From the NCBI GenBank assembly GCA_034003725.1, contig JAVEYB010000002.1, positions 142,568-206,567 of the forward strand: a DNA stretch of 64,000 bases, written 5' to 3'. Position numbers and translations under genes: made by a program. The stretch is from Candidatus Zixiibacteriota bacterium. GTDB lineage: Bacteria > Zixibacteria > MSB-5A5 > GN15 > FEB-12. Below are positions 9,878 to 45,200 of this stretch, piece after piece (positions within the stretch are counted from its first letter, which is position 1; each line of letters starts with the position of its first letter). The notes below the pieces were generated by a model. The model was not told the DNA's origin. It ran no database searches and saw nothing but the letters and a program-made list of their open reading frames with translations.

Positions 9878-10064
9878 AGTTCATTTGTCGTACATTCTGA
9901 TCTTGCCGCATTCGCCGAGTTATCCCTGTACTCTCAACGTCCCATAGATCTTGCCGGACTATCGCCGCCTGTCCCAACTTTGCACAGGTCAAGAAGGTCG
10001 GGCATTTTGTCGAATATGAGAGCATAGGGAGACGTATGCCTGCAAACAAGCACGGGAGGACCAT

Positions 10065-15044: not shown

Positions 15045-15072
15045 TTGCCGGTTGGGGGATTTTTTGTATTAT
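15045..15072 (+). promoter_or_regulatory. Sigma70-like promoter candidate for the imuA-imuB-dnaE2 operon
   Basis: TTGCCG (15045-15050), 16-nt spacer, TATTAT (15067-15072). It lies immediately upstream of the LexA-box-like palindrome. Confidence 0.45.
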
Positions 15073-15074
15073 AG

Positions 15075-15096
15075 ATACTGCACGTGTGGGCAGTAT
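15075..15096 (+). promoter_or_regulatory. LexA (SOS) box candidate, CTG-N10-CAG type
   Basis: ATACTG-cacgtgtggg-CAGTAT matches the TACTG-N10-CAGTA architecture of the E. coli-type SOS box. It overlaps the predicted transcription start of a classic SOS operon. Confidence 0.55.
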
Positions 15097-15097
15097 T

Positions 15098-15250
15098 GAT
15101 CGAGATGAAAGACAGGGTCGTCGGCGCACGAGGACGTACGCCAACCACGAATCGGGAGGGGTCGTCGGCGCACGAGGACGTACGCCAACCACGAATCGAG
15201 ATGAAAGACAGGGTCGTCGGCGCACGGGGACGTACGCCAACCACGAATTA
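15098..15250 (+). repeat. Three ~40-bp direct repeats in the imuA leader
   Basis: GGGTCGTCGGCGCACGAGGACGTACGCCAACCACGAATCG at 15115-15154 and 15159-15198. A third copy with a few changes is at 15211-15248. ATCGAGATGAAAGACA precedes copies 1 and 3. Confidence 0.9.
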
Positions 15251-15265
15251 GTAATAAGGGAAGAT

Positions 15266-24135: not shown

Positions 24136-24510
24136 TCACGGTGTGATGACTTTCCTGAAGTGCAGCATGGATTCAACGGTCTCGCGCATGTTTGACGGTT
24201 GTCCGACCACGAGCTTGTCACGGCGATTGAAGTAATCGAGGCAGGTACCGCATGAGAGTATCAGGGTTCCTTTGGCCTCCATCGTTTTCAGGATGTCTTC
24301 GACAGGGGAGTCCACGGTGGTGAGAAAGACGCCGGAGTTCATGCAAATAATACGAGCGGGAATCTGGCCCATCTCAACCAGCATGGACAGGAACGAACGC
24401 ATTAGCTTGTTGCCGAGATCGATTTCACCGTCTCCGATGCCGGAGGACTTCAGGATAAGCAGTAAGTCTTTGTCAAGGGTCATTCGTGCAACTCTCCCAC
24501 GATTTGACAC
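24136..24510 (-). CDS. DsrE/DsrF-like protein resembling the C-terminal domain of selenium-metabolism protein YedF
   Basis: ..[43 protein letters not shown].. matches the YedF/DsrE-like pattern as I remember it. The true start is probably ATG 24483. Confidence 0.6.
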
Positions 24511-24689: not shown

Positions 24690-27600
24690 TTATTTCAGGA
24701 GCAGCATTTTGCGAGAGGCGGCGAACCCGGCGGCATCGATGCGATACAGGTAGACGCCGCTGGCGACGGTGTTACCGTAGTTGTCGAGGCCATTCCAGAC
24801 GACCGCGTGATAGCCGGCGGGCAAGTGGGTGTCGGCGAGTGTGCGTACGATCCGGCCCTGGATGTTGTAGATCGTGATGCGAGTATCGGCGGCCACCGGA
24901 AGGGCGAATTCTATAGTGGTTGCAGGATTGAAGGGGTTCGGGTAGTTCTGCTCAAGGGCGAAGTGGTCGGGAAGGTTTTCGGTTTCGTCGCCGACGTCGG
25001 CGGGGGTGTCGTAGATGCACTGGACGGCGCGTCCCCAGTAATCGGCTGCTACTATCGAGCGGATGGCCGCACAGCCACCGGGCAGAAGGTCCATGAAGTG
25101 GCCGTGGTTGGCCTCAATGTACTCACCGTCGAAACTGTACAGCAGGACGACCGTGGAGTCGCCACTGGTGTAGTACTGCATTTCCATCTGGTCGAGCAGT
25201 GAGCCTGGTGCGCAGTCGCCCTCGTAGACGATCCGGACGGCGCCCAGATCATACTCACCTTCGTAGGACAGATAGCCGTACTCGCTGAGGGTGAAAGTGA
25301 CCGGATGGGGGGCGGGATCCTGCGGAGGATACGGGACGGCATCTCCATAGATCACCCGAATCAAGCAGACGAAGTCTTCGATGGTGAACGGGTCGCCGTC
25401 GGCATTGATATCGGAGGCGTACCTGGCGGCCTCAAGCGGGAACTGAACGCCGGGAATCGACAGGAAGACCGTGTCGCCGTAGAGGAGATAGCGCGAGAAC
25501 ATGACAGCATCGGCAATTGTGTACGGGATACCGTCGAGGTTCAGGTCCCCTCGTGACAGATCGCCGTCGTTGAGCAGAACGCCACCGCCGACTAACTCGA
25601 CGGCCTTCACGGGATAGATGACATCGGGACCGAATTCGCCGAAGCATTCCTGCTGGACACCTGTGTAGGTGGGGAAGCCGGTCGTTTCATCGGTCACGTT
25701 CACCCAGTACGGATCGTTGGCGGTATCGGGAAGCGGGTGAGATTGGAGCCGTTTTACTGTATGAGAGACAAAGAGGGTGTCGCCCGCTATGCTGGATAGT
25801 GCGTTGTCGGCGCAGTCAGTCCAATAGAAGTCAATGGGCACCCACTCAGGAACGTAAGTCGCCGAACCGCCGTGCAGGAAAGGCATCGTGAAGAGAAGTT
25901 GCGATTCGGTTTCCGCGAGGTTGCATGTGTCGGGGTGGTAGGGGCCGTTGTTGGTCTCGGCGAGTCCGACTACGGTCAGGAGGCCGGAGGGACAGTTCGG
26001 TTCGCAGTTCGAGTTCGCGTGCTGTCGAAAGGTGAAGTACTCCCATCCGCAGTCGGCATACAGGGGAGATGTTTGGTGTTCCAGGCCGAGGCCGCCATAC
26101 AGCGAGATTCTCGATCTATCATAGGCCAGCAGGAAGCTGAAGCCGCCGATAGGAGCGGGTGCATTTTCCAGATAGACGTCGACATTGGGAATCTCGTCCG
26201 GCGCATGGCCGTCCCCGCCGTATCCGGAGTTGGCCTGGATGACCACGCGATATGGAGCGGGCTGTTGGATGATGCGGACGGGCATTCTGCGACCGTCGCG
26301 AGTTGACGCCTCGACGTCAACTAGTTCATCGCGTCCGGTGTACGCCAGGAGGATGCCGTCTCGAAATGTCGGGAACTCGAGGGGAGTTACTGCACCCAGT
26401 GGGGCGGAGATGGCGATATGGGTGAACAGGCTCGGAGTGGATTCGGCGAGGGCGTGCTCGTTTTGGACATACGAAATGGTCGAACCTCGGATGAGCATGA
26501 TGTACAAAGCAGAGATCGAGTCAGCGCCACTGATGGATATGGTATTGGCGACGGTGTCATGGAAGACTGTTACATTGGGGCCGAGAGTTGAATCGAAAGG
26601 AGTCATTTCCGGAATTTCACCGGCTCGAGTTCGTATCGTGTGGACAAACTCAGCGATGTGGATATTAGAGTAGCCCAATATGTGCTTAAAGCATACGATA
26701 TCCGCGGGATCAAGATGATCTCCATCACCGTCGCAGTCGCCATCCAGGTCCGGCTGAATCGTGTCAGCGAAACTGACTACACCGTGTATGTAGGTGGTGG
26801 TCCGTTGTGCGTACGGGTTGGCGAAGCAATCAAGCGGGATTCCGGAGAAGGACGGAAGTTCGTCCGGCAGCGGCAGATAGTTGCCGTTGACATAGCGAAC
26901 CCGGTCGGCGATGCACTTGTATTCCGTATCGTTGTCGATGAGGTAGTCGTCGTAACAACCGCTGAAATAGAACCGGACGGGTAGTCCTCGGGTGTGCAGC
27001 GACGTGTCGTTGGCAGTCGTGAAATTGAGGACAAACAGTTCGGCGTGCAGGGAGTCGGGTCGGTAGCAGAGAGCGGAGCCTTCATCGCCGGCATCGAGTG
27101 TGATTTGCACTCCCTGCATATTCAGGAATCCGGGATAGTGATCGGTGAAGGTGACATCCTGCCATTCGACCTCGTTCCACCCGCAGTCGGTGAGGAATTG
27201 GCCGGTTCGGACTTCGTTGAGTTCGAAGAATCTGGAATCGTAGGCGATGTGGAATCGACCGGCATTGAAGTCGCGGTCAGTCCTTTCGAGCCACACCGGC
27301 AGGTCGAAGGTTTCTCCCGGTCGGATGCCGGAAATCGTATCGATTCGAACGATCGGCAGGATCTGGGCGGCCACAGGACCGACGTCGATTACCAGATTGT
27401 AAACGATTGAAGCGCTACCCTGCCGAAAGGAGACGGCTATGGAGACGTGGAAGCGGGTAAGCCGGTCGGCGTGCACGGGGGCAAACCGAAACTTTCCAGT
27501 CAGGCTGTCCAGGGACCATGCGCCTGTCGGTTCGGGGAGGAACTGGTACACGAAGAAGCCGACATCGTCGCACTCGTCGGGGTCGTACGCCTCGAGTTGG

Positions 27601-28031
27601 ACGACCAGCTCTTCGTCCTGGTCGATTTCGTACATTTGCCAGCCTCGATCGTTCCAAACAGGAGGCTGGTCCAATGCGCGGACGGTGAACCGGCAGTTCT
27701 GGTCGCCGGTAGTCATGGTGTCGTTGGCGGAGGCCGCGATTTCAACCTGGTAATTGTGATAAACATCGAGTGGTTCCGGATGCCAGAGCCAGAGGCCTGT
27801 TTTGAAGTCGACTGTGCCGGGGCCGGAGACCAAGTGGTAGCGGACATTTCGGCTGTAGCCGGGCTGAGAGCTGTTGGGATCGATGGCAACAACCGAGTAC
27901 AGCAACGAGTCACAGTGGTTACCGGTCACTTCGGTTGGGCAACCGGTAAAAATGGGCGGCTCGGGAGGGTTGGCTATCGCTAACACTGGCGATAGCGCGG
28001 CTGAAAAAAGGAGGACTTTGAGAATCTGCAT
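24690..28031 (-). CDS. Large secreted protein: two cohesin-like modules, dockerin-like EF-hand pairs and a T9SS type-A C-terminal sorting domain (candidate scaffoldin)
   Basis: Signal peptide MQILKVLLFSAALSPVLAIA. PGETFDLPVWL..FNAGRFHIAYDSRFFEL and VDVYLENAPAPIGGFSFLLAYDRSRISL are cohesin-like. Also GDLNLDGIPYTIADAVMF / DINADGDPFTIEDFVCL pairs and the tail LEQNYPNPFNPATTIEF...SGVYLYRI...RKMLLLK. Confidence 0.8.
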   Translation of the reverse strand: MQILKVLLFSAALSPVLAIANPPEPPIFTGCPTEVTGNHCDSLLYSVVAIDPNSSQPGYSRNVRYHLVSGPGTVDFKTGLWLWHPEPLDVYHNYQVEIAASANDTMTTGDQNCRFTVRALDQPPVWNDRGWQMYEIDQDEELVVQLEAYDPDECDDVGFFVYQFLPEPTGAWSLDSLTGKFRFAPVHADRLTRFHVSIAVSFRQGSASIVYNLVIDVGPVAAQILPIVRIDTISGIRPGETFDLPVWLERTDRDFNAGRFHIAYDSRFFELNEVRTGQFLTDCGWNEVEWQDVTFTDHYPGFLNMQGVQITLDAGDEGSALCYRPDSLHAELFVLNFTTANDTSLHTRGLPVRFYFSGCYDDYLIDNDTEYKCIADRVRYVNGNYLPLPDELPSFSGIPLDCFANPYAQRTTTYIHGVVSFADTIQPDLDGDCDGDGDHLDPADIVCFKHILGYSNIHIAEFVHTIRTRAGEIPEMTPFDSTLGPNVTVFHDTVANTISISGADSISALYIMLIRGSTISYVQNEHALAESTPSLFTHIAISAPLGAVTPLEFPTFRDGILLAYTGRDELVDVEASTRDGRRMPVRIIQQPAPYRVVIQANSGYGGDGHAPDEIPNVDVYLENAPAPIGGFSFLLAYDRSRISLYGGLGLEHQTSPLYADCGWEYFTFRQHANSNCEPNCPSGLLTVVGLAETNNGPYHPDTCNLAETESQLLFTMPFLHGGSATYVPEWVPIDFYWTDCADNALSSIAGDTLFVSHTVKRLQSHPLPDTANDPYWVNVTDETTGFPTYTGVQQECFGEFGPDVIYPVKAVELVGGGVLLNDGDLSRGDLNLDGIPYTIADAVMFSRYLLYGDTVFLSIPGVQFPLEAARYASDINADGDPFTIEDFVCLIRVIYGDAVPYPPQDPAPHPVTFTLSEYGYLSYEGEYDLGAVRIVYEGDCAPGSLLDQMEMQYYTSGDSTVVLLYSFDGEYIEANHGHFMDLLPGGCAAIRSIVAADYWGRAVQCIYDTPADVGDETENLPDHFALEQNYPNPFNPATTIEFALPVAADTRITIYNIQGRIVRTLADTHLPAGYHAVVWNGLDNYGNTVASGVYLYRIDAAGFAASRKMLLLK
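24693..24968 (-). other. T9SS type-A C-terminal sorting domain (Por_Secre_tail / FlgD-Ig-like)
   Basis: L-x-QNYPNPFNP-x-T-x-I-x-F ... aGxH ... W-x-G ... SGVYLYRI ... KMLLLK is the standard T9SS CTD pattern. Confidence 0.8.
25752..26252 (-). other. Cohesin-like module 2 (aa ~594-760)
   Basis: IPNVDVYLENAPAPIGGFSFLLAYDRSRISL...YADCGWEYFTF. Paralogous to module 1 (shared CGWxxxxF and P-x-x-FY-x-x-x-C motifs). Confidence 0.45.
26907..27356 (-). other. Cohesin-like module 1 (aa ~226-375 of the 1113-aa protein)
   Basis: IRPGETFDLPVWLERTDRDFNAGRFHIAYDSRFFELNEVRTGQFLTDCGWNEVEW follows the G-x-T-x-x-PV ... x-F-x-x-x-YD-x-x-x-L cohesin pattern. Confidence 0.45.
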
Positions 28032-28197: not shown

Positions 28198-29646
28198 TTA
28201 TGGACAGGGGGCCGGTTCCGGACCGCCCTGAAACAGGAATCCAACCAGGTAAATCAGGTCGGATAAATCGATTGCCGATTGGCTGTCACCATCGACGTTC
28301 GCTTCGTCCGGGCACACGGGTCCCTGACCCCCGAGAAAGAGGTAATTGACCAAGAAGATGAGGTCGGAGAGGTCGGACGAATCCAGGGGATCCCCGTTGA
28401 CGTTGCCCGTGAGTCCGGTACAGCAGTTGGAGGAAAGGAACTGCACCGGCATCCGCGCGCCGTCGCGGTTGGAGGCCTGAACGGATTGGAGACTTCCGCC
28501 CGAATACGTGAATAGCTCACCATCGCTTATCGGCTGAAACACCGGAGACTGTGCATCAAAAGTGGGAAGTTCAAAGACAAGCGTCGTTTGGCCATCGGTG
28601 GCTCGGATGAACTCGGCGCCGGACGGCCCGGCGGTAATTTCAACGTCGCCGGAAAACACGAAACAGAGAGCGCCAATCGAGTCGGTGTTCTCGATGTGGA
28701 TGGAGCCGAGTTGATTATCATACGTGATGGCTGGAGCTTGGTCAGAGGTCGGTGCGGGCTCTTGAGATGGATCTACCAGATTCAACATGCAGAGCAATAC
28801 GTACACGTAGTCGGACACCTGATCTGCCTGCCCATCCTGATTGGGATCGCCACACCCATTGAGGACGCCAGTCGAATTGAAGTAGTTGCCGAAGCTTACG
28901 ACGTCGGCAATCGACCACGGGACTCCGTCGCGGTTGCAGTCGCCGCGCGACGATTCTACATCCACCGGCAGCAGAATACCTTCACACGTCGACGCCTGCG
29001 CTGAAACCAACCATCCACCCGTGTGGTACAGCAACGTACCGTCGACGAGCGGTCTTCGATCGAGGGTTGAAGCTGCGTAGTCGACGTCGGGGAGGCCAAG
29101 CACGTAGGTGTACTCACCATCAGTCCACGAGTTCAGCTCGGCGAGGGGTTGTCCGGATGTGATAGGGATATCGCCGTAGAAGACGAGAAAGACGGCGCAG
29201 GCGGAATCGGCGCCCCCAATGCCAACGCGGCCTTCGTACAGGTAGTCCCACAAGGTGAGTACGTACTCCGACGTATCAGGCTGGGTCGACTGTGGGTCGA
29301 TCAAGCCGAGCGAGGCGAGTTGCATGTAGACCAGATCGGAGATATGATTGGGGACACCGTCCAGATTGAGGTCGCCGCAGGTGATACCGGCACCCTGGGG
29401 GTCGGCGAACAAGGTGGAGAAGTAAACGGCATCGCCAATCGTCCACGGGATGCCATCGAGATTGCAGTCGCCGCGTTCGGTGATTTCGTCACCCATCGAT
29501 GTGGAAATACCGTTCGTCCGGGAGTTCGAGATACTGCCGCTAAGTGTTGGTCCTGCAAGGGGTTGATTGGCGGATGAAAAGTCCTGGGCAAGCGCGGCGC
29601 CAACCAGAAGCAGGAGACACATTAATGCAAGCGGATAGGAACGCAT
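28198..29646 (-). CDS. Secreted protein with three dockerin-like EF-hand pairs and two copies of an unknown beta-rich X module
   Basis: Signal peptide. RGDCNLDGIPWTIGDAVYF..CGDLNLDGVPNHISDLVYM and RGDCNRDGVPWSIADVVSF..CGDPNQDGQADQVSDYVYV pairs, each followed by an X module. The Cys-framed tail module is at 28201-28425. Confidence 0.8.
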   Translation of the reverse strand: MRSYPLALMCLLLLVGAALAQDFSSANQPLAGPTLSGSISNSRTNGISTSMGDEITERGDCNLDGIPWTIGDAVYFSTLFADPQGAGITCGDLNLDGVPNHISDLVYMQLASLGLIDPQSTQPDTSEYVLTLWDYLYEGRVGIGGADSACAVFLVFYGDIPITSGQPLAELNSWTDGEYTYVLGLPDVDYAASTLDRRPLVDGTLLYHTGGWLVSAQASTCEGILLPVDVESSRGDCNRDGVPWSIADVVSFGNYFNSTGVLNGCGDPNQDGQADQVSDYVYVLLCMLNLVDPSQEPAPTSDQAPAITYDNQLGSIHIENTDSIGALCFVFSGDVEITAGPSGAEFIRATDGQTTLVFELPTFDAQSPVFQPISDGELFTYSGGSLQSVQASNRDGARMPVQFLSSNCCTGLTGNVNGDPLDSSDLSDLIFLVNYLFLGGQGPVCPDEANVDGDSQSAIDLSDLIYLVGFLFQGGPEPAPCP

Positions 29647-29806: not shown

Positions 29807-30385
29807 TTACAGGCAGGCGGGCAGTTGATAGGGGGGCGTGAAGAGATGCTGAACCAGCCGCAACAGATCACTGAGATCTACGCGGCCGAGGACATCGCCG
29901 TCGATATTCGCTTCCTCGGGGCAGCAAATCTGTCCATTCAGAAACAGATAGCCCGCAAGGCGGACGACATCGCTGAGATCAACGTCATCGAACGGATCGC
30001 AGTCGACATTTCCGACGACACCGCTGCATACCTGCATAGGGGCACGTCTGGAGATGACGTTTGAGATGTCCGACCAGTTTCGGTACTCATCGGCCGCTCT
30101 GATGGCGAAATAGTACCGCACACCGGGTTCGAGACCGGATACGAGCCACTCTTCCCGGGCGCCGGCCGGTTTGGGGTTCGGGATAACCCGAGCCGGTGTG
30201 GCCGACGACCAGTTTTCGGCCGTGATGGCCGAGCGGGAGAACCTAATATCATAGAAAGACGCCGTACCGACGGCGCCATCGTCACCTGTCGCAGTCCAAG
30301 ACAGGGTGACGCAGGCGGACAGTGCCTGCTGTCCACACAGGCATAGTCCAACCACCAGCAAGACGGCTATCCGTGATGCTGTCAT
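29807..30385 (-). CDS. Secreted FN3-like domain protein with C-terminal dockerin-like module
   Basis: ATG 30385 with a GGAGGTG SD and signal peptide MTASRIAVLLVVGLCLCG. FN3-like ..LSWTATGDDG..YDIRFS..GLEPGVRYYFAIRA... Tail module at 29810-30028. The upstream 45 codons of the tracked ORF are unlikely to be coding. Confidence 0.75.
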   Translation of the reverse strand: MTASRIAVLLVVGLCLCGQQALSACVTLSWTATGDDGAVGTASFYDIRFSRSAITAENWSSATPARVIPNPKPAGAREEWLVSGLEPGVRYYFAIRAADEYRNWSDISNVISRRAPMQVCSGVVGNVDCDPFDDVDLSDVVRLAGYLFLNGQICCPEEANIDGDVLGRVDLSDLLRLVQHLFTPPYQLPACL

Positions 30386-33785: not shown

Positions 33786-36700
33786 TTACTGGCAGGGCAC
33801 CGGCTCGGGTCCTGCGTTAAACAGGTAGTTGACCAGGTAGATCAAATCGGTCAGATCCACGTTCCCTTCCGGATCGCCGGTCACGTTGGCCTCGGGAGCG
33901 CACGTGGGGGCGGGTCCGCTCGTGAAGAGGAAATTCACGAAGTAGAGGAGATCCGACAGGTCGGTCTCATCGGACGGATCGGCATTGATATTGCCGGTCA
34001 AGCCCACGCAGCAACTGACGGTCAAGTGGACCGGGATACTGCCGGTGAGGTGCATGTTGTCGTTGGTGGTATACAGCAGGGAGCCCTCGTATTGGGCCTT
34101 TTCCATTCCCGCGCAGTTGAAGGTTACCGGGAACAGGAGGCTGTCCGCCGGGTCGATCAACTGAGCCGAGGTGGAACACGACAACCATATCTCGTTCGAG
34201 GTGAACGTGACTCTGAGGACGGCGTCACCCAGGTTGCGCACGACGAGGTTGTGCACTTCCTGTTCGCCGGGAGCCACGGTCATGGTCACCTCGTTTTCGG
34301 CGAACTGGCAGATCGGGTGAGCCGCGGTGCCGTACGCCTTGATCTCGATGTCATCGATATTCCAGCCGCAGTACCTAACGGAGACATCGGTTGTACCCAT
34401 GCCGAACCGGAGCTGGAACAGGGCGTTGCCGTCGGCATACGCGGAGACATCGAAATTCTGTTCCTGCCATGACGGATCGGTGAAGGAGACATCGGGATTT
34501 TCGTACAACCGGACCCAGCCGGAGCCGTCAAACACTTCGAAGTAGGCGTGGTCGTATGTCGCACGTTCGATACCCAGCCAGCGATAGAACGTCATGATGG
34601 TGCCGGTCATTGCCGAGCAATCTATGACGGGCGACGTCACCCACTGGGTGGATCCGATGTAGTTTTCATACTGTCCCTGACTGGTCAGGTCGTTGCCGAG
34701 CACCTGATTGTCGGTGCTGGGCGAGTGGTCGCTGGCCGGGTCGCCGTTGGCACCCGCAGGCGGACCGATTTGCCATTCGGCGGAGCCGCCGAGCCCAGTC
34801 CAGCCCTGATCATAGGAGAAATCATCCGAGAAGATGACGACGCGGTCGCCGACCACAATCTCGCACTGCAGGGTCGCGGAGTAACCACCCTCGGCCTGAA
34901 TGTCGATCTCCATGGTCGCGGGATGTCCGAGCGGACAGGTGGGGTCGGCGGTGACGGTGAAGACGTCGGCCGAGTTGTTGGCCGCGCCGTTAATCGAGTC
35001 GACGAGGCCGAAGACCGACCAGGTGTCGTCTCCCGTAACGTAGCTGTCGTTCGCGTAGAGGTACCCTTCGGTGGCGACAGCTCGACCGGTGCCGGTATTC
35101 TGGATGTTCACGACCAGATCGGCGGTTTCACCCGGGTCGAGGATCCCGTTCTGATTGCCGGACGCGTCATTAACGGAGACGGAGACGAATCCGATAACCG
35201 GGGCGTGCACCGGGACGCGGAAGGTTCCGGTCCACGTATCGCGGGCGGTGCCGGTGACTTCGAGGTCGAACGAGATGTTGTGCTTGTCCGGTGCATCGGC
35301 AGCGACGGTAAACGCGAATCCGTCGGCGACATAAGCGGTGCCGTTGTCTCCGGTCACGGTTCCGTAGCTCTCGGAGCCGTCGGTGATGGTCACATACGGA
35401 TCGGCGCTGGTGATGTTGGCGACGACGTCGATGGCATCGTCGGGTCCGACGTTGATGAGCTGGACGCCCATCAGGATGTCTTCACCGATATCGATAAGGC
35501 CGTTGGCGTTGCCAAGCTGGTCGTTGATCGTCCGGCCGTCAAACACGACATACGGGCCACTGGGGGTAATGACGGTGACGCCGGCGACATACGGAAGCGC
35601 GTTGAACGCGGTGACGGTCAGGGTCATAGACTGTCCGACCGGGAGCGCATCGGCGAACGGGATAACCGCGACGCCGGACGCATCGGTGAACGCCGATCCG
35701 AACAGGACGCCGTTATAGGAGACGGCGCACAGCGCGCCTTCCTCGCCGCCAACGGTAACCTGGAACTCGGTATCGCTGATAAGCATCACCGGGTCGTGGG
35801 TGACGGTAAGCGCGGCAGGAAGGTCAGTCCGCAGCTGCACGGACGGGTCACCGAAGATGTGCCAGGTGTCGTACATGGACACGCCACCGCTGCCGTTAAC
35901 GTCTATCATCTTGCACGAACCATTGAAGCAGATGCCGCCGAAGGTAGTTTTCGCCTCAGCGACGAGCAGGTCGTTTATTTCGTCCTGGGCGTCCATGGGC
36001 GGATCCCACGTCTGGTTGATGGACGACATGTAGACGGCGACGGCACCGGTCGGATCGCCGGAACCGTCAGTGGCGCGCATCCACGCTTCAGCAAAGCAAG
36101 TGTAGCCGTCAAACTCACCGTTGACGCAGGCGACACTGATGATAAAGGGGAGCATGGCGGTATTGACGAGATCGTTGACGTCCGTATTGCTGAAGCCGGT
36201 GGTCGACCACGCGGACGTGGAGCCGTGACCGCAGTAGTTGACGATGCTTCGGCCGGCGTTCAGTGCATTTGCGACGTCGGTTGCGGACGCGGCATAGCCG
36301 TAGAGGCCGTCAACTTCGGTATACGTAAACGCGAGCAGGTCGTCGCGGATAAAGCCCATATGCTCGTTGTCGTACTCGTTGAAGTGCCCCGGGCCTTCGG
36401 TCGAGGCGACCCCGGTTCCGCGATGGAGCCAGTCACCGATCAGCGGGTCGGTTTCATAGTCGACCGTACGTTCGACCTGAGTCTCGACATCGGCCACGGA
36501 CTCGGCAGAGAACCGTCCGATGAAGATATCCGGGTAGTCATCGGTCCCCGCCACTTTGGCGTACGACGGGTCGGAGGCGCCGCCGGAGACCTGGGGTGTG
36601 GCGACGTGGTTGTGGTCGCCGACGAGGATCACCCAGGCGAGGTTGGTGGTGTCATAGAAATTCTGGATGAACGCATCGATCGCGGTGCTGGTGTTGCCTA

Positions 36701-37523
36701 TGGAAGAGACGTTCACGAGAGTGGTCTTGATACCCTTCTGCGTCTTCCAGTCGACGAGCGGCGCCATGGCAGCCGCGTACGAGTCGTAGGCGATAATCAG
36801 CATGTCGCCCGACTCCATGACGGGCGTGTATTTCTGCTCACTGCTGAAGTTGAGGAAGTGCCGGGAGTAGAGCAGGTCGAAATCCGGGACGGCCGCGGCC
36901 GATTTGCGATCGTACAGCGGATTTGCGCCGCCACTGCCTTCGGTTTCCACCTCGACGGTCACGGACGTGTAGACGCGAAGCGTTTTGGTATCCGGGTCGT
37001 ATTGGAACGGCTGCAGATCAATCACCGTCCCACGATAATCCCGGAGGATATACGGTTCACGCGTCGATGCAAGTTCCTGGGGGTAGAATCCGGGCTTGGA
37101 GTACTCCGGCCCAAAGACGTAGGGGACATCGGAGGGATTCACCGTTCGCAGCAGGTCACCCTTGGAGGGAGCGACCGGAGTGTTAGGGAAGTCGACGAAT
37201 TCAGCGTCGGTGACGCGAACGGCGACCGATCCCTGGTCGGCGATGATAATGCTGCGACTGATGCGCGGCAGAGAAGGCGCCCCTTCGATTCTGGTTTCCC
37301 CCTCCCCGGGAAGATCGATCAGGTTCCAGGTCGCGCCGTCTATGGTCGCCCCCGTGCGATCAAACGCGTTCACCTCAAACCGAACGACGGTACGCGAGTC
37401 GTTTGATTGTTGGACGATGACCTCAACATCGTCGCCCCCAGTGCCCAGCTCAATTCGTTCCGCGGAAACGAACGAGGCAGCGAATAGAACCAGGAAAGCA
37501 GCCGTTAGCACACTGATCCGCAT
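33786..37523 (-). CDS. Gingipain-like cysteine peptidase (family C25) with propeptide, CARDB-like repeats, jelly-roll domain and dockerin-like tail
   Basis: Signal peptide. C25 propeptide-like N-terminus, then VILVGDHNHV..SDPSY..YPDIFIGRFSA. His motif NYCGHGSTSAW and Cys motif IISVACVNGEF. Tail module at 33789-34013. Confidence 0.9.
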   Translation of the reverse strand: MRISVLTAAFLVLFAASFVSAERIELGTGGDDVEVIVQQSNDSRTVVRFEVNAFDRTGATIDGATWNLIDLPGEGETRIEGAPSLPRISRSIIIADQGSVAVRVTDAEFVDFPNTPVAPSKGDLLRTVNPSDVPYVFGPEYSKPGFYPQELASTREPYILRDYRGTVIDLQPFQYDPDTKTLRVYTSVTVEVETEGSGGANPLYDRKSAAAVPDFDLLYSRHFLNFSSEQKYTPVMESGDMLIIAYDSYAAAMAPLVDWKTQKGIKTTLVNVSSIGNTSTAIDAFIQNFYDTTNLAWVILVGDHNHVATPQVSGGASDPSYAKVAGTDDYPDIFIGRFSAESVADVETQVERTVDYETDPLIGDWLHRGTGVASTEGPGHFNEYDNEHMGFIRDDLLAFTYTEVDGLYGYAASATDVANALNAGRSIVNYCGHGSTSAWSTTGFSNTDVNDLVNTAMLPFIISVACVNGEFDGYTCFAEAWMRATDGSGDPTGAVAVYMSSINQTWDPPMDAQDEINDLLVAEAKTTFGGICFNGSCKMIDVNGSGGVSMYDTWHIFGDPSVQLRTDLPAALTVTHDPVMLISDTEFQVTVGGEEGALCAVSYNGVLFGSAFTDASGVAVIPFADALPVGQSMTLTVTAFNALPYVAGVTVITPSGPYVVFDGRTINDQLGNANGLIDIGEDILMGVQLINVGPDDAIDVVANITSADPYVTITDGSESYGTVTGDNGTAYVADGFAFTVAADAPDKHNISFDLEVTGTARDTWTGTFRVPVHAPVIGFVSVSVNDASGNQNGILDPGETADLVVNIQNTGTGRAVATEGYLYANDSYVTGDDTWSVFGLVDSINGAANNSADVFTVTADPTCPLGHPATMEIDIQAEGGYSATLQCEIVVGDRVVIFSDDFSYDQGWTGLGGSAEWQIGPPAGANGDPASDHSPSTDNQVLGNDLTSQGQYENYIGSTQWVTSPVIDCSAMTGTIMTFYRWLGIERATYDHAYFEVFDGSGWVRLYENPDVSFTDPSWQEQNFDVSAYADGNALFQLRFGMGTTDVSVRYCGWNIDDIEIKAYGTAAHPICQFAENEVTMTVAPGEQEVHNLVVRNLGDAVLRVTFTSNEIWLSCSTSAQLIDPADSLLFPVTFNCAGMEKAQYEGSLLYTTNDNMHLTGSIPVHLTVSCCVGLTGNINADPSDETDLSDLLYFVNFLFTSGPAPTCAPEANVTGDPEGNVDLTDLIYLVNYLFNAGPEPVPCQ

Positions 37524-37908: not shown

Positions 37909-40900
37909 TTACAAGCAGTGTGCCGGTGGAACTCCACCGAGGAAAAGATAATTGACGAGTGCGATGAGATCCGACAGATCGACTGCTCCGGCGAGATCGC
38001 CGTTGATGTTCGCTTCCTCCGGACACCACGGAGCCGGCCCGCCGAGGAACAGGTAGTTGACGAGGTAAATCAGGTCGGAGAGATCAATCGCCGCTCCTGA
38101 GTCGTTGATGTTGCCCGTTTCGTCGCGGCAGCAGGTGACCGGGGGATTGACGCAGGTGCATTGGACCGGCGCGCTGCCGGTACCGTTGATGTATGAATCG
38201 AGGAACGCGATGTCGGTGTAATCGATATCGCAGTCGCCATCGGGATCGGCGTTCGCCGGGACGGTTGGCGCGGGACCGCCTGAGTCGATAAACGACGCAA
38301 GATAGTCGATGTCGTCGCTGTCGATGACGCCGTTGTTGTCGACGTCGCCGGGGTATTGACCGGCGCAGGTGTCGAGCGGGCAGATGATGACGGCGTAATC
38401 GATGAGAGTGCGGATTTCACCTCCCGCATAGGGAATGGGTGGACCGCTCCATTCTGCCGGATTGAGCTGGAAGAAGTTGACGACGTCCGTCCAGAGGTCC
38501 GGATAGTCGATGAGTTCGACGATCGGGGGATACTGCGGACAGACCTGCTGAACGGCGAGGTTGTAGGCATCGTGCTGGATCTGACCGTGCGGACCGGAGA
38601 TGAGGGCGGCGTCGTTGTGCACGGCCGAGCCGTGCGCGGAGCCGGCGGGCGGTTCCCCTTCGTTGGCGTCGAAGTACGGATCGGAGATGCAGATGCGGAA
38701 CTCTTCGGGGCAGACGCCGGCGACGGTGACATAATGGCCACCGTGTCGTACGCAGCCCGAACCGGTCGGCTCGAACTCGTAGAAACCGAGCAGGAGGATA
38801 ACATCCTGTGACCGCATCACTTCGTCGCGGATCAGTTCAAACGGAGGCGCGGGGACAAGGACGCTGGTGTAGTCCCCCGCGAGGCCGACGCTGGACAGCC
38901 ATGCCTGCAGGCCGGTGAAGAGATCGAGGATGAAGGTTCCAATCCCTCCCGGCGGGCAGTTGGTATAGCGGGCCAGCGAATCAACGAAGGGAATGACATT
39001 CGACGGATCGTGGTCGTCCCACGGCCCGTACGGAGTGACGAGCGGGTAGTTGTCGTTGATGGTCGGCGGCACAACCGGGGTGGGTTCGAATTTCGAATCG
39101 AACCACCAGAAGCAGTTGGCAAGCGCCACCGGACCGCAGAAGGACCATCCGCCGAGCGGACCGCCGGTCCAGGCGTTCTGTTTCTGATCGAAGTCCGGCA
39201 TCCCGAACGGGGCATAATCCTCGTACGGAGCCTTGTAGTATTCGCACGTGTCCTGTTGAGGCTCTGTCGGACAGATTACGAACGCCTGACTGATGATCGT
39301 AATCACGGGTCCACCGTCGTAGGGAGCCCAGTCCTCCCACGCGTTCATGCCCAGGAAGTTGGTAACGAGCTCCGGTGGAGTCGGATAGTTCACTACTTCG
39401 ACAGGCACGAGGAATCCGGGAAGCATCATCGACGTGAGCATGTAGGGATCGTGCTGGATCTGACCGTGCGGGCCGCTGATGTTGTTGGCGTCATTGTGGA
39501 CGCCGCCGCCGTGAGCCGATCCTACGGGCGGCTCACCCTCGAGAGCGTCGAGGAACGGGTCGGAGATACAGATCTGGGTCTTCGTCGTACAGACGCCGGC
39601 CACGGTGACCCAGTGCCAGCCGATCGGCATGGGTATGGCGGCGGTTTCCTCATAAAACGCCAGCAGGAGGATTACGTCCTGACAGTCGAGGACCTGATCG
39701 CGGATGAACTCATAGGTCGGCAGCGGCACCAGGGTATCCTTGAAGTAAGGATCGAGACCGCGCTCAACGAAGATCTGCCTGACGGCGTCGACGAGGTAGT
39801 TCGGCGGGGTGCCGGACCCGTGGACATTCGTGCCCATACGCATGGCCAGATCGTTAATGAATGGAATGACGTTGGTGGTATCGTGATCGTCAAACGGGCC
39901 AAAGGCCTGCACCAGCGGGTAGTTGTCATTCGGGGGCGGGTTGCCCGGGCCGGGGAAGAACGGCCGAGGATCGATCGGGGAAGGTTCGAACCTGGAATCA
40001 AACCACCAGAGGCAGTTCGCCACGGCGGCGGGTCCGTCGTGCGACCACACGCCGAACTCGTCCTGCCACATGGCCTGTTTCTGGTCGAAGTCGGGCATTC
40101 CCTGCGGTGCGTAGTCGAGATACGGCGGTTTGTAGTACTCACACGGTTCTTCGGGCGCCTGCGGTTCGCCCGGACAGATCATGACCGCGTATTCAACTTC
40201 GGCGTGGTACGGGTACATGGTCGGGTCGGGATTGGCGAGGGTGACGCTCTGGAACTCGGCCGGGCAATTGGCGCCGGTCGGTGAGAAGCCGCGTGGGAAT
40301 CCGGGCAGCCACCAGGTGCCGCCGGGCGACGGTGAATCGAGCATGACCGGGTACGCATCATGCGACACCGGGTAGTCGTAGCTTCCGGGTGTGACCGGGT
40401 ACCAGTGAGTGGGATCGCGAGGGTCGTGCACGATACCGGCGTGCGAGGGCGGACGGACCCGTCCCGCGCCGCCGGCTTCGGCGTTATCGGTTTCGGGATC
40501 GGATACGGCGACCATCATTGTGGTCATATCGACACCGGCCATGGTGACATACCGGCCGCCGTCGCGCCACCACTGCTCACCGTCGAACCACCAGTTTCCG
40601 ATCAGCAGGATGATGTCCTGACAGACCATGAGCGATTCGGCCATCACGAAGAAGTCCGGCATCCGGTACGTGGTTTCGTAGAATTGCCACTTGGGGTCCG
40701 GATCCCAGAAGAACCGGGTGAGGCCGTCTTCCATGACGTGGACATCGGTGCCGCCCCAGGGGTCAAAGACGGTGTCCGAATGGAAATAGGTGAACAGCTC
40801 GTCCTTGAGCTCGATCGCGTTGACAAAGGGGTAGTAGCCCATCGCTCCGTACCACCAGAGGCAGTTCGTGACGGCGGTGGGTCCGCTGTGGCAGGGGAGC

Positions 40901-41952
40901 TGACTCGGGAAGTCCGGCATGCCGGTCAGCGCGTAAGTGGTGTCGGGTTTCCAATACCAGGTGTCCGGTGTCTCCCTCGGGCAGATGATTTCGGCGTACT
41001 CAATGACGGCGAAGATCGGCCCCGGAATACCGGGCGGGCAGGTGGTTCCTCCATTCTGATCGACGAACTCGTAGGCGAAGGGATCGGCCGGGTAGTCGGG
41101 GAGGAAAAGGCATCCTGCAACCGTCTCGCAGAGGGTCGGGTCCATGACGGCTATGGAGTATATGTCATGCGAGACGACCGCGGCGTCGTTGTGCGAGGGT
41201 GGCGGCGGACTGGCGAGGTCGAGGTACGGATCGGAGACGGCGATGAGCGCTTCGACGGAGTCAACGCCGGCAACGGTCACGTAATGGCCGCCCAGCCGGC
41301 AGCATTCCTGGGGGTTGCCGCCGGGCGCCAGATAGAAGCCAATGAGGAGAATGACATCCTGGCTGCGCCGCACTTCGCCGGCAAGGAAGTCCCAGGTGAA
41401 GGCGCCGCACGAATAGAGATTGACGTCGTAGTCGTCAAGGAGTCCTCTGGATGCCAGCCAGTCACGGACGCCGGCGTCAAAATCGACGATATTCGTTCCG
41501 GGTGCGAGAAGATTGGTATTCAGCGTGGTCGCCATAGCGGCCACGAGCGGTTGAACGTTTAATGGATCATGGTCATCCCACTGGGCGTAAGGGGTTACGA
41601 GTGGGTAGTTATCGCTGATTCCGGGCGGCACGACCGGAAGTGGTTCGAACTTTGAATCGAACCACCAGAGGCAGTTGGCCAGAGCGACGGGACCGCAATA
41701 GCCGGCGTCGACGCTGCCGTCCGGCGGTTGCGAGAAGTCCTGTACCTGGCTGAAGTCGGGTGTGCCCGAGGGACAGTAGTCCGGATACCCGGCTTTGAAG
41801 TAGAATTCCTTTTCGCCTCGGTCTGGCTGAGCGGAAGGGGGAGTCCCGGATGAAGTCGGCGGTGTCGGTTGCGATTGCTCGGGGATCACCGGCAATCCGA
41901 TCAGGAGAACGATGGCCATGAAAAGAAAAGCGGAATGATACCACTTCAACAT
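37909..41952 (-). CDS. Secreted 1347-aa protein built from four ~270-300-aa tandem repeats of a putative papain-fold (C39_2-like) thiol peptidase domain, plus a classical dockerin-like pair and the Cys-framed tail module
   Basis: Each repeat has MPDF-x-Q, (C)GP-x-A-x-x-NC-x-WW, QD[VI]ILL, GG[HR]YVT[VM]AGV, [IV]SDP and ends in ..ICP... GDVDNNGVIDSDDIDYL is a classical dockerin-like pair. Tail module at 37912-38133. Confidence 0.8.
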   Translation of the reverse strand: MLKWYHSAFLFMAIVLLIGLPVIPEQSQPTPPTSSGTPPSAQPDRGEKEFYFKAGYPDYCPSGTPDFSQVQDFSQPPDGSVDAGYCGPVALANCLWWFDSKFEPLPVVPPGISDNYPLVTPYAQWDDHDPLNVQPLVAAMATTLNTNLLAPGTNIVDFDAGVRDWLASRGLLDDYDVNLYSCGAFTWDFLAGEVRRSQDVILLIGFYLAPGGNPQECCRLGGHYVTVAGVDSVEALIAVSDPYLDLASPPPPSHNDAAVVSHDIYSIAVMDPTLCETVAGCLFLPDYPADPFAYEFVDQNGGTTCPPGIPGPIFAVIEYAEIICPRETPDTWYWKPDTTYALTGMPDFPSQLPCHSGPTAVTNCLWWYGAMGYYPFVNAIELKDELFTYFHSDTVFDPWGGTDVHVMEDGLTRFFWDPDPKWQFYETTYRMPDFFVMAESLMVCQDIILLIGNWWFDGEQWWRDGGRYVTMAGVDMTTMMVAVSDPETDNAEAGGAGRVRPPSHAGIVHDPRDPTHWYPVTPGSYDYPVSHDAYPVMLDSPSPGGTWWLPGFPRGFSPTGANCPAEFQSVTLANPDPTMYPYHAEVEYAVMICPGEPQAPEEPCEYYKPPYLDYAPQGMPDFDQKQAMWQDEFGVWSHDGPAAVANCLWWFDSRFEPSPIDPRPFFPGPGNPPPNDNYPLVQAFGPFDDHDTTNVIPFINDLAMRMGTNVHGSGTPPNYLVDAVRQIFVERGLDPYFKDTLVPLPTYEFIRDQVLDCQDVILLLAFYEETAAIPMPIGWHWVTVAGVCTTKTQICISDPFLDALEGEPPVGSAHGGGVHNDANNISGPHGQIQHDPYMLTSMMLPGFLVPVEVVNYPTPPELVTNFLGMNAWEDWAPYDGGPVITIISQAFVICPTEPQQDTCEYYKAPYEDYAPFGMPDFDQKQNAWTGGPLGGWSFCGPVALANCFWWFDSKFEPTPVVPPTINDNYPLVTPYGPWDDHDPSNVIPFVDSLARYTNCPPGGIGTFILDLFTGLQAWLSSVGLAGDYTSVLVPAPPFELIRDEVMRSQDVILLLGFYEFEPTGSGCVRHGGHYVTVAGVCPEEFRICISDPYFDANEGEPPAGSAHGSAVHNDAALISGPHGQIQHDAYNLAVQQVCPQYPPIVELIDYPDLWTDVVNFFQLNPAEWSGPPIPYAGGEIRTLIDYAVIICPLDTCAGQYPGDVDNNGVIDSDDIDYLASFIDSGGPAPTVPANADPDGDCDIDYTDIAFLDSYINGTGSAPVQCTCVNPPVTCCRDETGNINDSGAAIDLSDLIYLVNYLFLGGPAPWCPEEANINGDLAGAVDLSDLIALVNYLFLGGVPPAHCL

Positions 41953-42250: not shown

Positions 42251-45200
42251 TTACTGACACGGTTGTGGCAGCGGACCCGAATTAAACAGGAAGTTCACGA
42301 GGTAGATGAGATCCGAGAGGTCGGTCTGTCCATCGAGGTCGCCGTCAACATTGGCTTCCGCGGGGCAGGGAATCGGGGCTCCGCTGGAGAACAGGTAGTT
42401 GACGAAGTAGATGAGATCGGACAGGTCGACTTCATCCTGGGCGTCATTGTTGACATTACCTGTCAAGCCGACGCAACAGGCGACGGTTAAGGTTACCGGA
42501 ATCACACCGGTCGGATGGCCGCCATCGTTTGAAGTGTAGGTTAGGCTGCCGGTGTGTACGCCCTGAGACATGCCACCGCAGTTGACCTGAACCGGGAACT
42601 CAACGCTGTCGCCGGCAGCAATGACCAGCTGGTCGCCGGAGCAGGAGAGCCAGGTATAGGCCGAGGCGAAGGTGATGCGGAGAGCGCCGTCACCGGCGTT
42701 TCTCACGGTGATGTACTCGGTCGTCGCCGACCCGGGCTGCAGCATGACATGAAGTTCATCGTCGGGGATGTCGCACACCGGGGTGGCCGCAGTTCCGTAG
42801 CCTTTCAACTCGATGTCGTCAATGTTCCAGCCGCAATAGGTTAGGGACACGTCGGTTGTGCCCATACCGAAGCGGATCTGGAAATCGGGGTTGTGGTCGG
42901 CGTAGGCCCCTACGTCATAATTCTCTTCTGTCCAGTTGCCATCGGTGAACGAATTGTCCGGGTTTGCATAGAGCTGCACCCAGTCGGTGCCGTCAAACAC
43001 GGACAGGTATACGTGGTCGTACTGGCTCCGTTCGACACCGAGCCAGCGATAGAACTTGAACAGCACGCCGCTCATATTGCTGCAGTCGATAACCGGTGAG
43101 GTGACCCACTGCGTTGGCGAGATGTAGTTCTCATACTGGCCGTCGCCATTGAGATCGTTTCCGAGGACGGCATTATCGGAGGTTCCGGAATAGTCACTGG
43201 CCGGATCGCCGCCGATTCCGCCCACCGGACCCATCTGCCACTCGGCGGAGCCGCCAAGGCCGGTCCAGCCCTGATCGTACGAGAAATCATCGAAGAAGAA
43301 GACGACCCGGTCACCGACGGTGATGTCGAATGACAGAGCTTTCGTGAAGCCGTTGTCGGCGCTGATGTCGAGCGACACGGTAACGCCATAACCCATCGGG
43401 CACCCGGCGTCGACAGACACTTCGAACGGGTCGCCGGAGTTGATCGCCATGCCGTTCACAGAGTCCACCAGTCCGTAGTAGCCGTAGTTGTCGCTGATGC
43501 TGACAAAGGGGTCGGCGACGAACAGCATGCCGGAGGTATTGATGGCCTGGCCGGTACCGCTGTTTTCGATAGTAACGGTAATGGAAGCCGTCTCTCCGGG
43601 GTCGATGATGCCATTGTCGTTACCCGCGTCGTCGATGGCAACCGAGACAATACCGATTTCGGGCGCGTGGACGGGGACACGGAACGAGCCGGTCCATGTG
43701 TCACGGGCGGTCCCGGTCACCTCGATATCGAAGGCGATCTGGTATTTATCCGGGCAGGTTGACGACACCGTGAATGCGAAGCCGTCGGCGACGTAGGCCG
43801 TGCCATTATCGCCGATGATCGTGCCGTACGACTCGGCATTATCGGTGATGGTGACGTACGGGTCGGTGGTGCTGATGGTCGCGTTGACGTCGTAGGCGTC
43901 ATCGGGACCAACGTTAATCAGCTGAACACCCATGAGGATCGCTTCGCCGGCGTCCACGAGTCCGTTGTCGTTGCCGGAGGCATCATTGACGGACGCGTCG
44001 TCGAAAATGACATACGGGCCGGAGGGGGTAATCACCTGAATGGCGCCGAAGTACGGCTCGCGATTCTGGGCGGTTACGACCACGTTGGCGACGCCCGGGG
44101 CGGCGAATCCGGCGAGGTCAATGGTAGTCGTTCCCGACGTGCCGATGTATCCGGAACCCTGCAGTTCGCCGTTGAAGGTGATGCCGACGTATGATCCGGG
44201 ATCAGCTGAAATGGTGAGGCTGGTCGTGGCGAGCACCACGGCAGCATCGTGGGTCACGTTGTTGACGGCCGGGATGCCGAGGTAGGTCATCACGGAGGGA
44301 TCACCCATGAGGTGATAGATTTCCCAGTAATAGTCTTCCCGGCTGGAACCCGACTCGCTGACGGCCATGTTGCCGGCAAAAACGATGGCATCATTGGTGA
44401 CGTAGTGGAAGTTGACGGGTTCGCCGTGGTCGTGGAAGAGACCGTCGTAGGCGCCCAGCGTGGTCTGCTCATAGGTTGGGCCGGCGGCCACAACCGGGCC
44501 GTAGCCGACGCCCCAGTAGTAATCTTCGTACCAGTACGTGGAATTGGAGCCGCCGATGTAGCCGATACCGCCGCGTTCGGAGATCTGCAGGAACGCCTCA
44601 CCGAAGCACGGGGTGGAGTAATCGGTTCCAAACGTGTTCGACTCACAGCAGTTACCGATGCCGAGCAGGTACTGATGCCAGTTGGTCAGGCCGGGGATAT
44701 CGGATGTGTTGAACGGCGGGTCGGCATGCCCTGAGTGCGAGCAGTGGGCGGTGTAGTTGTACAGCCCTGCGCCGTCGTTAATGGACTGAATAATTGCGGC
44801 GGCCGCGCCGGACTGGTCCGACGCCGGATACAGCCAGACGTGCGGCGTGATGCCGTGCAGCGCGTTGAAATACAGGGTCGTGCCGTAGTTGAGCTGGCCG
44901 TTGCCGTGCGTGGCGGCGTAGGTGCCGTCAACACCGGAGACGAGGGTGACGAATTCGAGATAGGACGGATCGGGCATCTCGTAGCGTTCGTACTCCAGCG
45001 TCTTATCGATCTGGGGCTGCAGTTGGGTGGTGTTCTGCGCCGAGAAGCGGCCGTAGTAGATCTCGGGGAAGATGTCGCCGGTGAACTCGCAGAACCGGAG
45101 GTCGGTGACGTGTGACCCGGTCGAACCGGAGAACGGCGGAATCTGCTGGGCGTCGCCGACGAACAGAACAAACGACGGCGCCGGGTCAGCCGGCGTCCCG

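Follow-up and report, generated by a model that had tools for sequence, protein, structure and literature searches.

A gene for a scaffoldin-like protein lies in a 64,000-nucleotide stretch of the genome of a Candidatus Zixiibacteriota bacterium (contig JAVEYB010000002.1, positions 142,568 to 206,567; hereafter the window), and its product, judging from its own domains and those of its neighbours, probably serves at the cell surface as a platform on which protein-degrading enzymes dock. The predicted protein of 1113 residues combines two cohesin-like modules (Coh) with a C-terminal sorting domain (CTD) of type IX secretion systems (T9SS), and seven open reading frames (ORFs) in the window end in a dockerin-like tail. 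We reasoned that the cohesins would capture these tails, a cohesin-dockerin scaffold mechanism to which we assign a probability of roughly 0.55. A preliminary description of this DNA had proposed an outer-membrane-anchored scaffold with two cohesin-like modules. The scaffold idea gained from the cohesin fold, the dockerin tails, the CTD and conserved gene linkage, and the architecture proved to be more than a plain string of cohesins: besides its cohesins the protein carries internal dockerin-like modules (Doc; one intact, one decayed) and two further modules, here called X, all of which had been overlooked. The scaffold is thus a Coh-Doc-X cassette protein, and its own dockerin-like and X modules open the rival possibility of self-assembly, which is weighed below. 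The domain order is signal peptide, N-terminal immunoglobulin (Ig)/cadherin-like region, Coh1, decayed DocA, X1, Coh2, DocB, X2 and T9SS CTD, placed as follows.

24690..28031 (-): scaffoldin-like gene, 1113 aa, ATG start (ORF listing, domain map by iterated hidden Markov models (HMMs), orthologue alignment)
27972..28031 (-): signal peptide, aa 1-20, MQILKVLLFSAALSPVLAIA (read by eye from the sequence; position conserved in orthologues)
27438..27959 (-): N-terminal conserved region, aa 25-198, Ig/cadherin-like (common to many family members)
26814..27344 (-): Coh1, divergent subtype, aa 230-406 (to ~420) (Pfam Cohesin and paralogy to Coh2)
26673..26741 (-): DocA remnant, aa 431-453 (orthologue alignment, HMM score)
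26268..26600 (-): X1, diverged beta-rich module, aa 478-588 (X HMMs)
25566..26267 (-): Coh2, the family's canonical subtype, aa 589-822, with the Cys-rich insert CGWEYFTFR...CPSG...ETNNGP (AlphaFold2, Foldseek, profile search of PDB)
25338..25553 (-): DocB, aa 827-898, GDLNLDGIPYTIADAVMF...SDINADGDPFTIEDFVCL (profiles, AlphaFold2 helices)
25002..25316 (-): X2, aa 906-1010, predicted nine-strand beta sandwich (HMM; AlphaFold2 secondary structure, per-residue confidence (pLDDT) 85-92)
24693..24950 (-): T9SS type A C-terminal sorting domain, aa 1028-1113 (TIGR04183, FlgD_ig)

The cohesin assignment carries the argument. On the evidence of structure prediction the cohesin fold of Coh2, a predicted nine-strand beta sandwich, is established. 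The AlphaFold2 model of this module, built with the A2 family alignment, reached a pLDDT of 83.3 and a predicted template-modelling score (pTM) of 0.85, and the top 50 Foldseek matches to it in PDB were all cohesins (E from 1.8e-5, probability 1.00). A second, independent model covering the whole cassette again retrieved nothing but cohesins among its top 50, with a template-modelling (TM) score of up to 0.83 on 1g1k_A; normalised to the target, TM scores in the two models reached 0.71 and 0.83. Searching all PDB sequences with the 24-sequence family profile (A2) led to the same fold, as the best 20 matches were all cohesins (best E 0.0019), including non-cellulosomal ones from C. perfringens and Archaeoglobus. 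Coh1 and Coh2 are paralogous, an HMM iterated from either one recovering the other in six of six orthologues, and because the family HMM ties Coh1 to Coh2 the cohesin fold of Coh1 can be regarded as established by homology. Pfam Cohesin (PF00963), with its gathering score of 24.1, matched Coh1 in the full protein at E 1.5e-5 and 25.6 bits, aligning only 52 of the 139 profile positions (3-54); the isolated module scored 22.5 bits, and Coh2 had no Pfam match even at E<=10. The two paralogous modules, their cohesin-like fold and both of the motifs quoted for them in the preliminary description were found as described; only the bounds proved longer, at about aa 230-406 (or 420) for Coh1 and 589-822 for Coh2, compared with the original 226-375 and 594-760. 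Family modules are some 60 residues longer than classical cohesins and contain conserved Cys-rich inserts (CGWEYFTYR...CPSG...ETNNGP).

Export signals stand at both ends of the ORF, in agreement with the earlier description. The N-terminus, MQILKVLLFSAALSPVLAIA/NPPEPP, is hydrophobic with an A-x-A-like site, reads by eye as a Sec-type signal peptide and is kept in the orthologues. At the other end TIGR04183, the model of the T9SS type A sorting domain, matched aa 1030-1109 with 31.1 bits over a cutoff of 23, and FlgD_ig matched the C-terminal 86 residues with 40.2 bits, whereas Por_Secre_tail (PF18962) fell below its cutoff (24.1 vs 27). The CTD is invariant in the alignment of scaffold orthologues. 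The isolated N-terminal region gave a weak Pfam Cadherin match (E 2.8e-4, below cutoff), and the HMM of this region matches family members P0001-P0014. Neither a catalytic domain nor a carbohydrate-binding module (CBM) was detected in the scaffold with Pfam and NCBIfam.

The proposed partners were located with a regular expression and then a six-frame HMM scan of the window, which returned exactly seven ORFs ending in a Cys-bracketed double EF-hand tail of ~75 residues, at the places already described.

8441..9817 (+): 458-aa secreted protein with tail, no detectable family (Dockerin_1 on tail)
28198..29646 (-): 482-aa secreted protein, non-catalytic, built as Doc-X, Doc-X, tail (HMMs)
29807..30385 (-): 192-aa secreted fn3-like protein with tail (fn3 E 3.8e-4; tail HMM; synteny)
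33786..37523 (-): 1245-aa C25 gingipain-like peptidase with tail; propeptide, catalytic and Ig-like domains (Peptidase_C25 E 1.8e-58)
37909..41952 (-): 1347-aa four-repeat protein with tail (Dockerin_1 E 4.6e-6, aa 1201-1258; tail HMM)
42251..46147 (-): 1298-aa protein with tail, the second C25 gingipain-like peptidase (Peptidase_C25 E 3.5e-53)
50797..52653 (+): 618-aa PAD_porph-type deiminase with tail (PAD_porph E 1.5e-29)

The seven tails form one family (41-68% identity) of two Ca-loop and helix repeats between cysteines, and their alignment shows the duplicated pattern G[ND][VI][ND]xD....[VI]DL[ST]DL[IV]xLVNYLF. From profile and homologue evidence they are clearly homologues of type I dockerins. 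The best PDB match of the tail profile was the type I dockerin 4fl4_A, aligned over its full length at E 0.017, and eight of the 12 matches were dockerins. NCBI names tail homologues from Zixibacteria, GN15, Planctomycetota and others as dockerin type I proteins, and Pfam Dockerin_1 (PF00404) was found on about half of the 120 homologues listed. In the window itself this model was passed by only one isolated tail, that of 8441..9817 (31.1 vs 22.9 bits), the other six giving no match, and NCBIfam placed no dockerin or sorting-signal model on the tail proteins. All of these proteins have Sec signal peptides and none has a CTD.

As for cargo, the tail proteins had been described as mostly hydrolases, a statement verified only in part, for the two C25 peptidases, both full-length with propeptide and C-terminal Ig domain, and for the PAD_porph-type deiminase. 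Two others are non-catalytic, one belongs to no recognised family, and the 1347-aa protein has four tandem repeats of ~290 residues, each with conserved CGPxAxxNCLWWF and GGHYVTVAGV motifs (Cys/His), its best PDB match being the 'serine protease' double-dockerin entry 8x39 (E 1.1e-6). Its earlier label of papain-like could not be confirmed, Peptidase_C39_2 giving no more than a weak hint at E 0.13. After the repeats come a canonical dockerin and the tail, which together make a tandem double dockerin. Neither the scaffold nor any of the tail-bearing proteins showed a CBM or a glycoside hydrolase (GH) family. Two cohesin-fold modules on a protein lacking a catalytic domain, with seven dockerin-tail proteins in the window, are what marks a scaffoldin system; a cellulosome would in addition have a CBM on the scaffold and carbohydrate-active enzymes (CAZymes) as cargo, and here the cargo consists of C25 peptidases and a PAD deiminase. 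The locus therefore does not encode a cellulosome, only a predicted system that follows cellulosome logic.

Alongside the tails, the internal Doc modules represent a second dockerin subtype. Their family profile (A7) matched type I dockerins in PDB (E 2.5e-4), and hhalign related it to the tail profile with a probability of 94%. DocB carries GDLNLDG...ADAV and SDINADG...IEDFV and is helical in the AlphaFold2 model, although Pfam Dockerin_1 matches it weakly (E 0.011). DocA of the target has a 17-aa deletion relative to all orthologues that removes the region of the second Ca loop, and its HMM score drops to 2.3 bits from 68-74 bits in the orthologues. The order Coh-Doc-X is invariant in the family, with Coh and Doc joined without a linker. 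In the AlphaFold2 model of the cassette the individual domains are well folded (pLDDT 80-92), Doc being helical and X a nine-strand beta sandwich; the pTM was 0.52 against 0.85 for Coh2 alone, and docking of the internal dockerin on its own cohesin is thus neither supported nor excluded. Foldseek with the cassette model gave cohesins only among its matches, none of which provided a fold class for X. Proteins with Doc-X-CTD and no cohesin do occur (L003), and in two ORFs of related loci a tail-type module is placed internally and followed by a CTD, so dockerin modules themselves could be displayed through the T9SS. Proteins of one or other of these two layouts lie at L003:13512-14603 (+), L078:9277-12180 and L020:3506-5962.

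In the mechanism we propose, the scaffold would be exported by Sec and then by the T9SS, after which it would sit on the outer membrane or be released from it. Retention at the surface after T9SS export is known for type A cargo of P. gingivalis and is not universal. The scaffold cohesins would bind the tail dockerins in a Ca2+-dependent manner, and docking would concentrate two C25 peptidases, the PAD-type deiminase, the multi-repeat putative cysteine peptidase and the non-catalytic adaptors at the cell surface, the outcome being a proteolytic counterpart of the cellulosome. The internal Doc-X dyads would probably pair with a separate class of cohesin or with some other ligand, linking scaffolds or adaptors. 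The 482-aa protein may re-attach Doc-X dyads in trans by docking its tail on a scaffold cohesin: its dyads are closest to DocA-X1 of the scaffold orthologues (35-44% identity, E down to 1e-36) and far from the target scaffold's own DocA remnant. A scaffold that has lost DocA, next to a tail-bearing protein with two intact DocA-X1-like copies, fits a tail that docks back onto the scaffold.

Conserved gene order supports the link between the scaffold and the tail-bearing genes. Six full-length scaffold orthologues (44-59% identity) were found in GN15-type and unclassified metagenome-assembled genomes (MAGs), with shorter and longer relatives in Zixibacteria, and at this degree of divergence the synteny of the scaffold with the fn3+tail, C25+tail and double-dockerin genes is kept. 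The conserved GN15 order runs from a 1348-aa double-dockerin protein through C25+tail, an OYE reductase, an Asp-protease/PDZ protein and the 192-aa fn3+tail protein to the scaffold. The fn3+tail gene is the conserved direct upstream neighbour of the scaffold in GN15 relatives (the L009 homologue is 76% identical), and the 482-aa gene is a window-specific insertion between the two, absent from L002 and L003.

The scaffold belongs to a large family, not annotated as cohesin, in Zixibacteria, GN15 and related MAGs of the Fibrobacteres-Chlorobi-Bacteroidetes (FCB) group. A full HMMER scan of 1.84 billion representatives, clustered at 50% identity, placed the cohesin-like module in 1884 clusters, 744 of them at E<=1e-30. 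Family members begin with a signal peptide and an N-region, continue with one to three cassettes of Coh (~180-220 aa), Doc (~65 aa) and X (~105 aa), and end in a T9SS CTD. In a census of 160 members (the best 150 plus P0001-15) most had the single-cassette form (N-)Coh-Doc-X-CTD, and in 29 of the 160 a tail dockerin stands in place of the CTD, for example Coh-Coh-Doc-X-Tail, an arrangement that follows adaptor-scaffoldin logic. A genome scan restricted to one genome per species and to Coh2-type modules (A4) yielded 268 loci, often several per genome and mostly from MAGs labelled Zixiibacteriota, GN15, FCB group or 'Ignavibacteriales'. Gene neighbourhoods were counted in 80 of these loci, all from species other than the target. 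A tail ORF lay within 10 kb of the cohesin gene in 42 of the 80, and a same-strand tail ORF stood directly upstream of 29 of the 70 cohesin genes that had enough upstream sequence, where local tail density predicts 2.4. This upstream linkage is retained at 35-44% identity.

Most often the partner encoded upstream is a secreted protein of ~370-440 aa with a cohesin-like N-domain and a tail dockerin. By hhalign, the one method behind this assignment, its N-domain relates to A2 with a probability of 91% (E 1e-6), which points to a third, more divergent cohesin-like class; the upstream tail proteins of Zixibacteria had no Pfam cohesin match, and their sole PDB sequence match, to thermitase (E 0.008), was judged spurious. 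In MAGs of the Zixibacteria type (L010-L088) this results in a two-gene module, with a Coh'-tail gene (Coh' being the upstream cohesin-like domain) directly upstream of a ~850-900-aa Coh-Doc-X-CTD gene, as at L010:7327-8427 and 8843-11449 or L012:7253-8473 and 8768-11437; L010 has two such pairs in tandem. No A5-type cohesin was found in the window or in GN15 loci.

Several observations weigh against tails docking on the scaffold cohesins and should be considered together. Identity to solved cohesins is only 8-18%, the modules contain the Cys-rich inserts mentioned above, and the dockerin-binding face of such divergent cohesins may not be conserved. Coh2 and six of the seven tails fail Pfam thresholds; the Pfam and NCBIfam signals for cohesin and dockerin are only marginal, which is why profiles and structure prediction were needed. 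Family searches of the window proteins recovered no T9SS component within the 64 kb, and support for T9SS machinery in the genome is indirect, coming from 23 further CTD-bearing ORFs among the 80 related loci and from NCBI homologue names. The CTD-less tail enzymes would need some other way over the outer membrane, perhaps a different secretion system or a ride on the cohesin protein with its CTD. In the distant Zixibacteria members P0008, P0012 and P0009 the scaffold has no flanking proteases, so that protease cargo is confined to the GN15 clade. The upstream-tail pairs are partly inherited and so are not independent events. On the supporting side, in a mirror-tree test on 19 gene pairs the upstream tail co-varied with the cohesin encoded downstream (r 0.22, p 0.04 by partial Mantel) and not with the downstream Doc, X or CTD, and the upstream cohesin-like domain co-varied with X (r 0.68, p 2e-4) and with Doc (r 0.33, p 8e-4) of the downstream protein; the signal is weak, the sample small and partial Mantel tests are liberal, so that these figures can be taken as hints of reciprocal docking within gene pairs, and as a lead only.

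It also should be considered that the dockerin-like module directly after each canonical cohesin could occupy that cohesin, in cis or in trans. Taken further, the cohesins would bind the family's internal Doc-X modules, in the same molecule or in a neighbouring one, to form a lattice, a fibre or a layer of adhesin, and the tails would bind some other receptor. We think this doubtful, even though much of the family can be read that way: the Coh-Doc-X order never varies and has no Coh-Doc linker, the single cassette of most members leaves no 'free' cohesin, the Doc-X of cohesin-less Doc-X-CTD proteins (L003) must act in trans, and the Ig/cadherin-like N-terminal region is adhesin-like. Such self-assembly leaves the upstream tail genes in 29 of 70 cases and the swaps of CTD for tail unexplained. 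Nor does the cassette model show confident cis packing, given its drop in pTM relative to the cohesin alone. The downstream Doc and X co-vary with the cohesin-like domain of the upstream protein and not obviously with the cis cohesin, and in the target the decay of DocA leaves Coh1 without a cis partner. A somewhat less probable alternative retains the cohesin fold and drops dockerin binding, making the protein a T9SS-secreted adhesin or substrate-binding protein, the tails Ca2+-stabilised modules with another role, and the protease clustering a matter of co-regulation only. It would be logical to take the low identity to functional cohesins in this sense, as well as sequence matches that cover only the first ~55 residues and the lack of a CBM or catalytic domain as a functional anchor, and non-cellulosomal cohesin-like and dockerin-like modules without known function are widespread according to Peer et al. 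2009, as cited in PMC8542988. Against it, cohesin-fold and dockerin modules turn up together again and again, both within single polypeptides and in neighbouring genes, over hundreds of clusters of the family, which is hard to explain without interaction.

The least probable of the ideas considered here is that the tail serves mainly in export, either as a sorting signal of its own or as a handle for docking in the periplasm and hitch-hiking through the T9SS with the CTD-bearing cohesin protein. In almost every case the tail forms the very C-terminus, where it alternates with the CTD in the family; homologues of the gingipains and PAD that bear a CTD in Porphyromonas bear a tail here; and the tail proteins have Sec signals with no known outer-membrane export signal. 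The tail is, however, a clear dockerin homologue, and the two ORFs with an internal tail followed by a CTD argue against a purely terminal, obligate sorting signal. We know of no precedent for T9SS hitch-hiking. Docking of tails on the scaffold cohesins is the interpretation we prefer, and it can be extended, at low probability, to a phylum-wide surface code of Zixibacteria and GN15. Such a code would be made up of three or more classes of cohesin, two of dockerin and X, with the CTD restricted to cohesin proteins; CTD-less enzymes would get to the surface and be held there by docking, and might even dock in the periplasm and hitch-hike through the T9SS, and Coh'-tail and Coh-Doc-X-CTD proteins would pair as 'double-handshake' heterodimers.

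The window contains further genes in and around the cluster. The Asp_protease_2 and PDZ protein (30603-32501, +) has no tail, and its place beside the scaffold is conserved in all GN15-type loci; an S9 prolyl-oligopeptidase-family protein in the cluster (52799-55294, +) likewise has no tail. Two very large PAS-rich sensors (46629-50660, +, and 55373-59911, +) flank the PAD+tail gene and the S9 peptidase. Of these, one is a histidine kinase of the hybrid type carrying about 5 PAS domains, GAF and a receiver, the other a Ser/Thr kinase with 8 PAS domains and a LuxR helix-turn-helix, and both may regulate the secreted-enzyme cluster. The scaffold is followed directly downstream by a small ORF (24136-24510, -; 115 aa as called and 124 aa in the ORF listing) that matches no Pfam family, kept in loci L001-L003, and an ABC transporter pair comes next. 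A 1036-aa DnaE-type polymerase is encoded at 17634-20744 (+), its L002 orthologue having PHP, DNA_pol3_alpha and HHH_6, and with two overlapping ORFs upstream (14831-17510) it resembles a mutagenesis cassette of the ImuA/ImuB/DnaE2 type. The idea that the locus is an island gained by horizontal transfer was rejected, the GC content of the locus being 0.57-0.58 against ~0.59 window-wide, with no skew break.

If the cohesins do bind the tails, the cohesin-dockerin principle would also serve to order proteolytic enzymes at the outer membrane in an FCB lineage that is widespread and uncultured; to our knowledge this principle has been studied almost only in Gram-positive cellulose degraders. It would also represent a second answer to the problem faced by Porphyromonas, with one CTD-bearing platform and interchangeable docked enzymes rather than a CTD on each gingipain, and protein engineers would gain new orthogonal cohesin-dockerin pairs. 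How CTD-less enzymes pass the outer membrane becomes a testable question. Similar systems have twice been proposed from genomes and never tested, and a compact syntenic locus with candidate partners is therefore a practical test site.

Among known systems, the clostridial and ruminococcal scaffoldins (CipA, ScaA/ScaB, OlpA-C; 1ohz, 3ul4, 4uyp, 1g1k) share the cohesin beta-sandwich fold, and their cellulosomes share duplicated EF-hand dockerins, a hierarchy of anchoring scaffoldins and of adaptor scaffoldins that combine cohesins with a terminal dockerin, an X module next to a dockerin and clustered scaffoldin genes. They differ in being Gram-positive, with SLH or sortase anchors, CBM3 and CAZyme cargo, whereas here the cell is diderm, with a T9SS CTD, no CBM, proteolytic cargo and X after instead of before the dockerin, and binding is an inference. 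The T9SS display of P. gingivalis is similar in placing C25 peptidases and a Porphyromonas-type PAD on the surface of an FCB-group cell by type A CTDs. In P. gingivalis the gingipains and PPAD each carry their own CTD and are attached directly to anionic lipopolysaccharide; here the enzymes carry dockerins and no CTD, the CTD being found only on the cohesin protein, and attachment would therefore be indirect. NagJ and NagH of C. perfringens and the Archaeoglobus fulgidus cohesin 2xdh, which were among our sequence or fold matches, are likewise cohesin-dockerin modules not devoted to cellulose, but they form pairwise enzyme links or single modules rather than multi-cassette T9SS-sorted scaffolds.

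The preliminary description knew of no characterised example of this combination, and none characterised experimentally came to light; in-silico precedents do exist (PMC8542988, PMC6461901). Literature searches found nothing linking Zixibacteria or Zixiibacteriota to dockerins or type IX secretion, no Zixibacteria or GN15 link to cohesins or cellulosomes among the matches listed, and nothing on Latescibacteria with dockerin and cohesin. The closest precedent is Ca. Stygibacter (Cloacimonadota), for which Williams et al. 2021 predicted a cellulosome-like complex by sequence analysis only: a scaffoldin of 3755 aa with tandem cohesins, CBM2/CBM3 and a CTD, together with dockerin-tagged GH18, GH57, S8 and C25 proteins (PMC8542988). 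The two are alike as uncultured FCB-group bacteria with a non-catalytic multi-cohesin protein whose T9SS-type CTD is the proposed anchor, and with signal-peptide enzymes bearing C-terminal dockerins, C25 included; breakdown of polypeptides as well as polysaccharides was proposed there (PMC8542988). Unlike the Stygibacter scaffoldin, with its Pfam-detectable cohesins and CBMs, the present protein has 1113 aa, no CBM and divergent cohesins in Coh-Doc-X cassettes with internal dockerins, its cargo so far consists of peptidases and a deiminase, and the lineage is GN15/Zixibacteria. The 'planctosome' that Andrei et al. 2019 proposed for Planctomycetes of fresh water (Nemodlikiaceae), an in-silico peptide-degrading complex, is similarly a Gram-negative cohesin-dockerin system for peptides, with an anchoring protein, a dockerin+cohesin adaptor and dockerin-bearing peptidases, but has a lamin-tail anchor in place of a T9SS CTD, M12B/M14 metallopeptidase cargo, and another phylum and other module families (PMC6461901). 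What sets the locus apart from these precedents is the lineage, a cohesin family barely detected by standard models, a Coh-Doc-X cassette that involves two subtypes of dockerin, the lack of CBM and CAZymes, and a compact syntenic locus that names the candidate partners.

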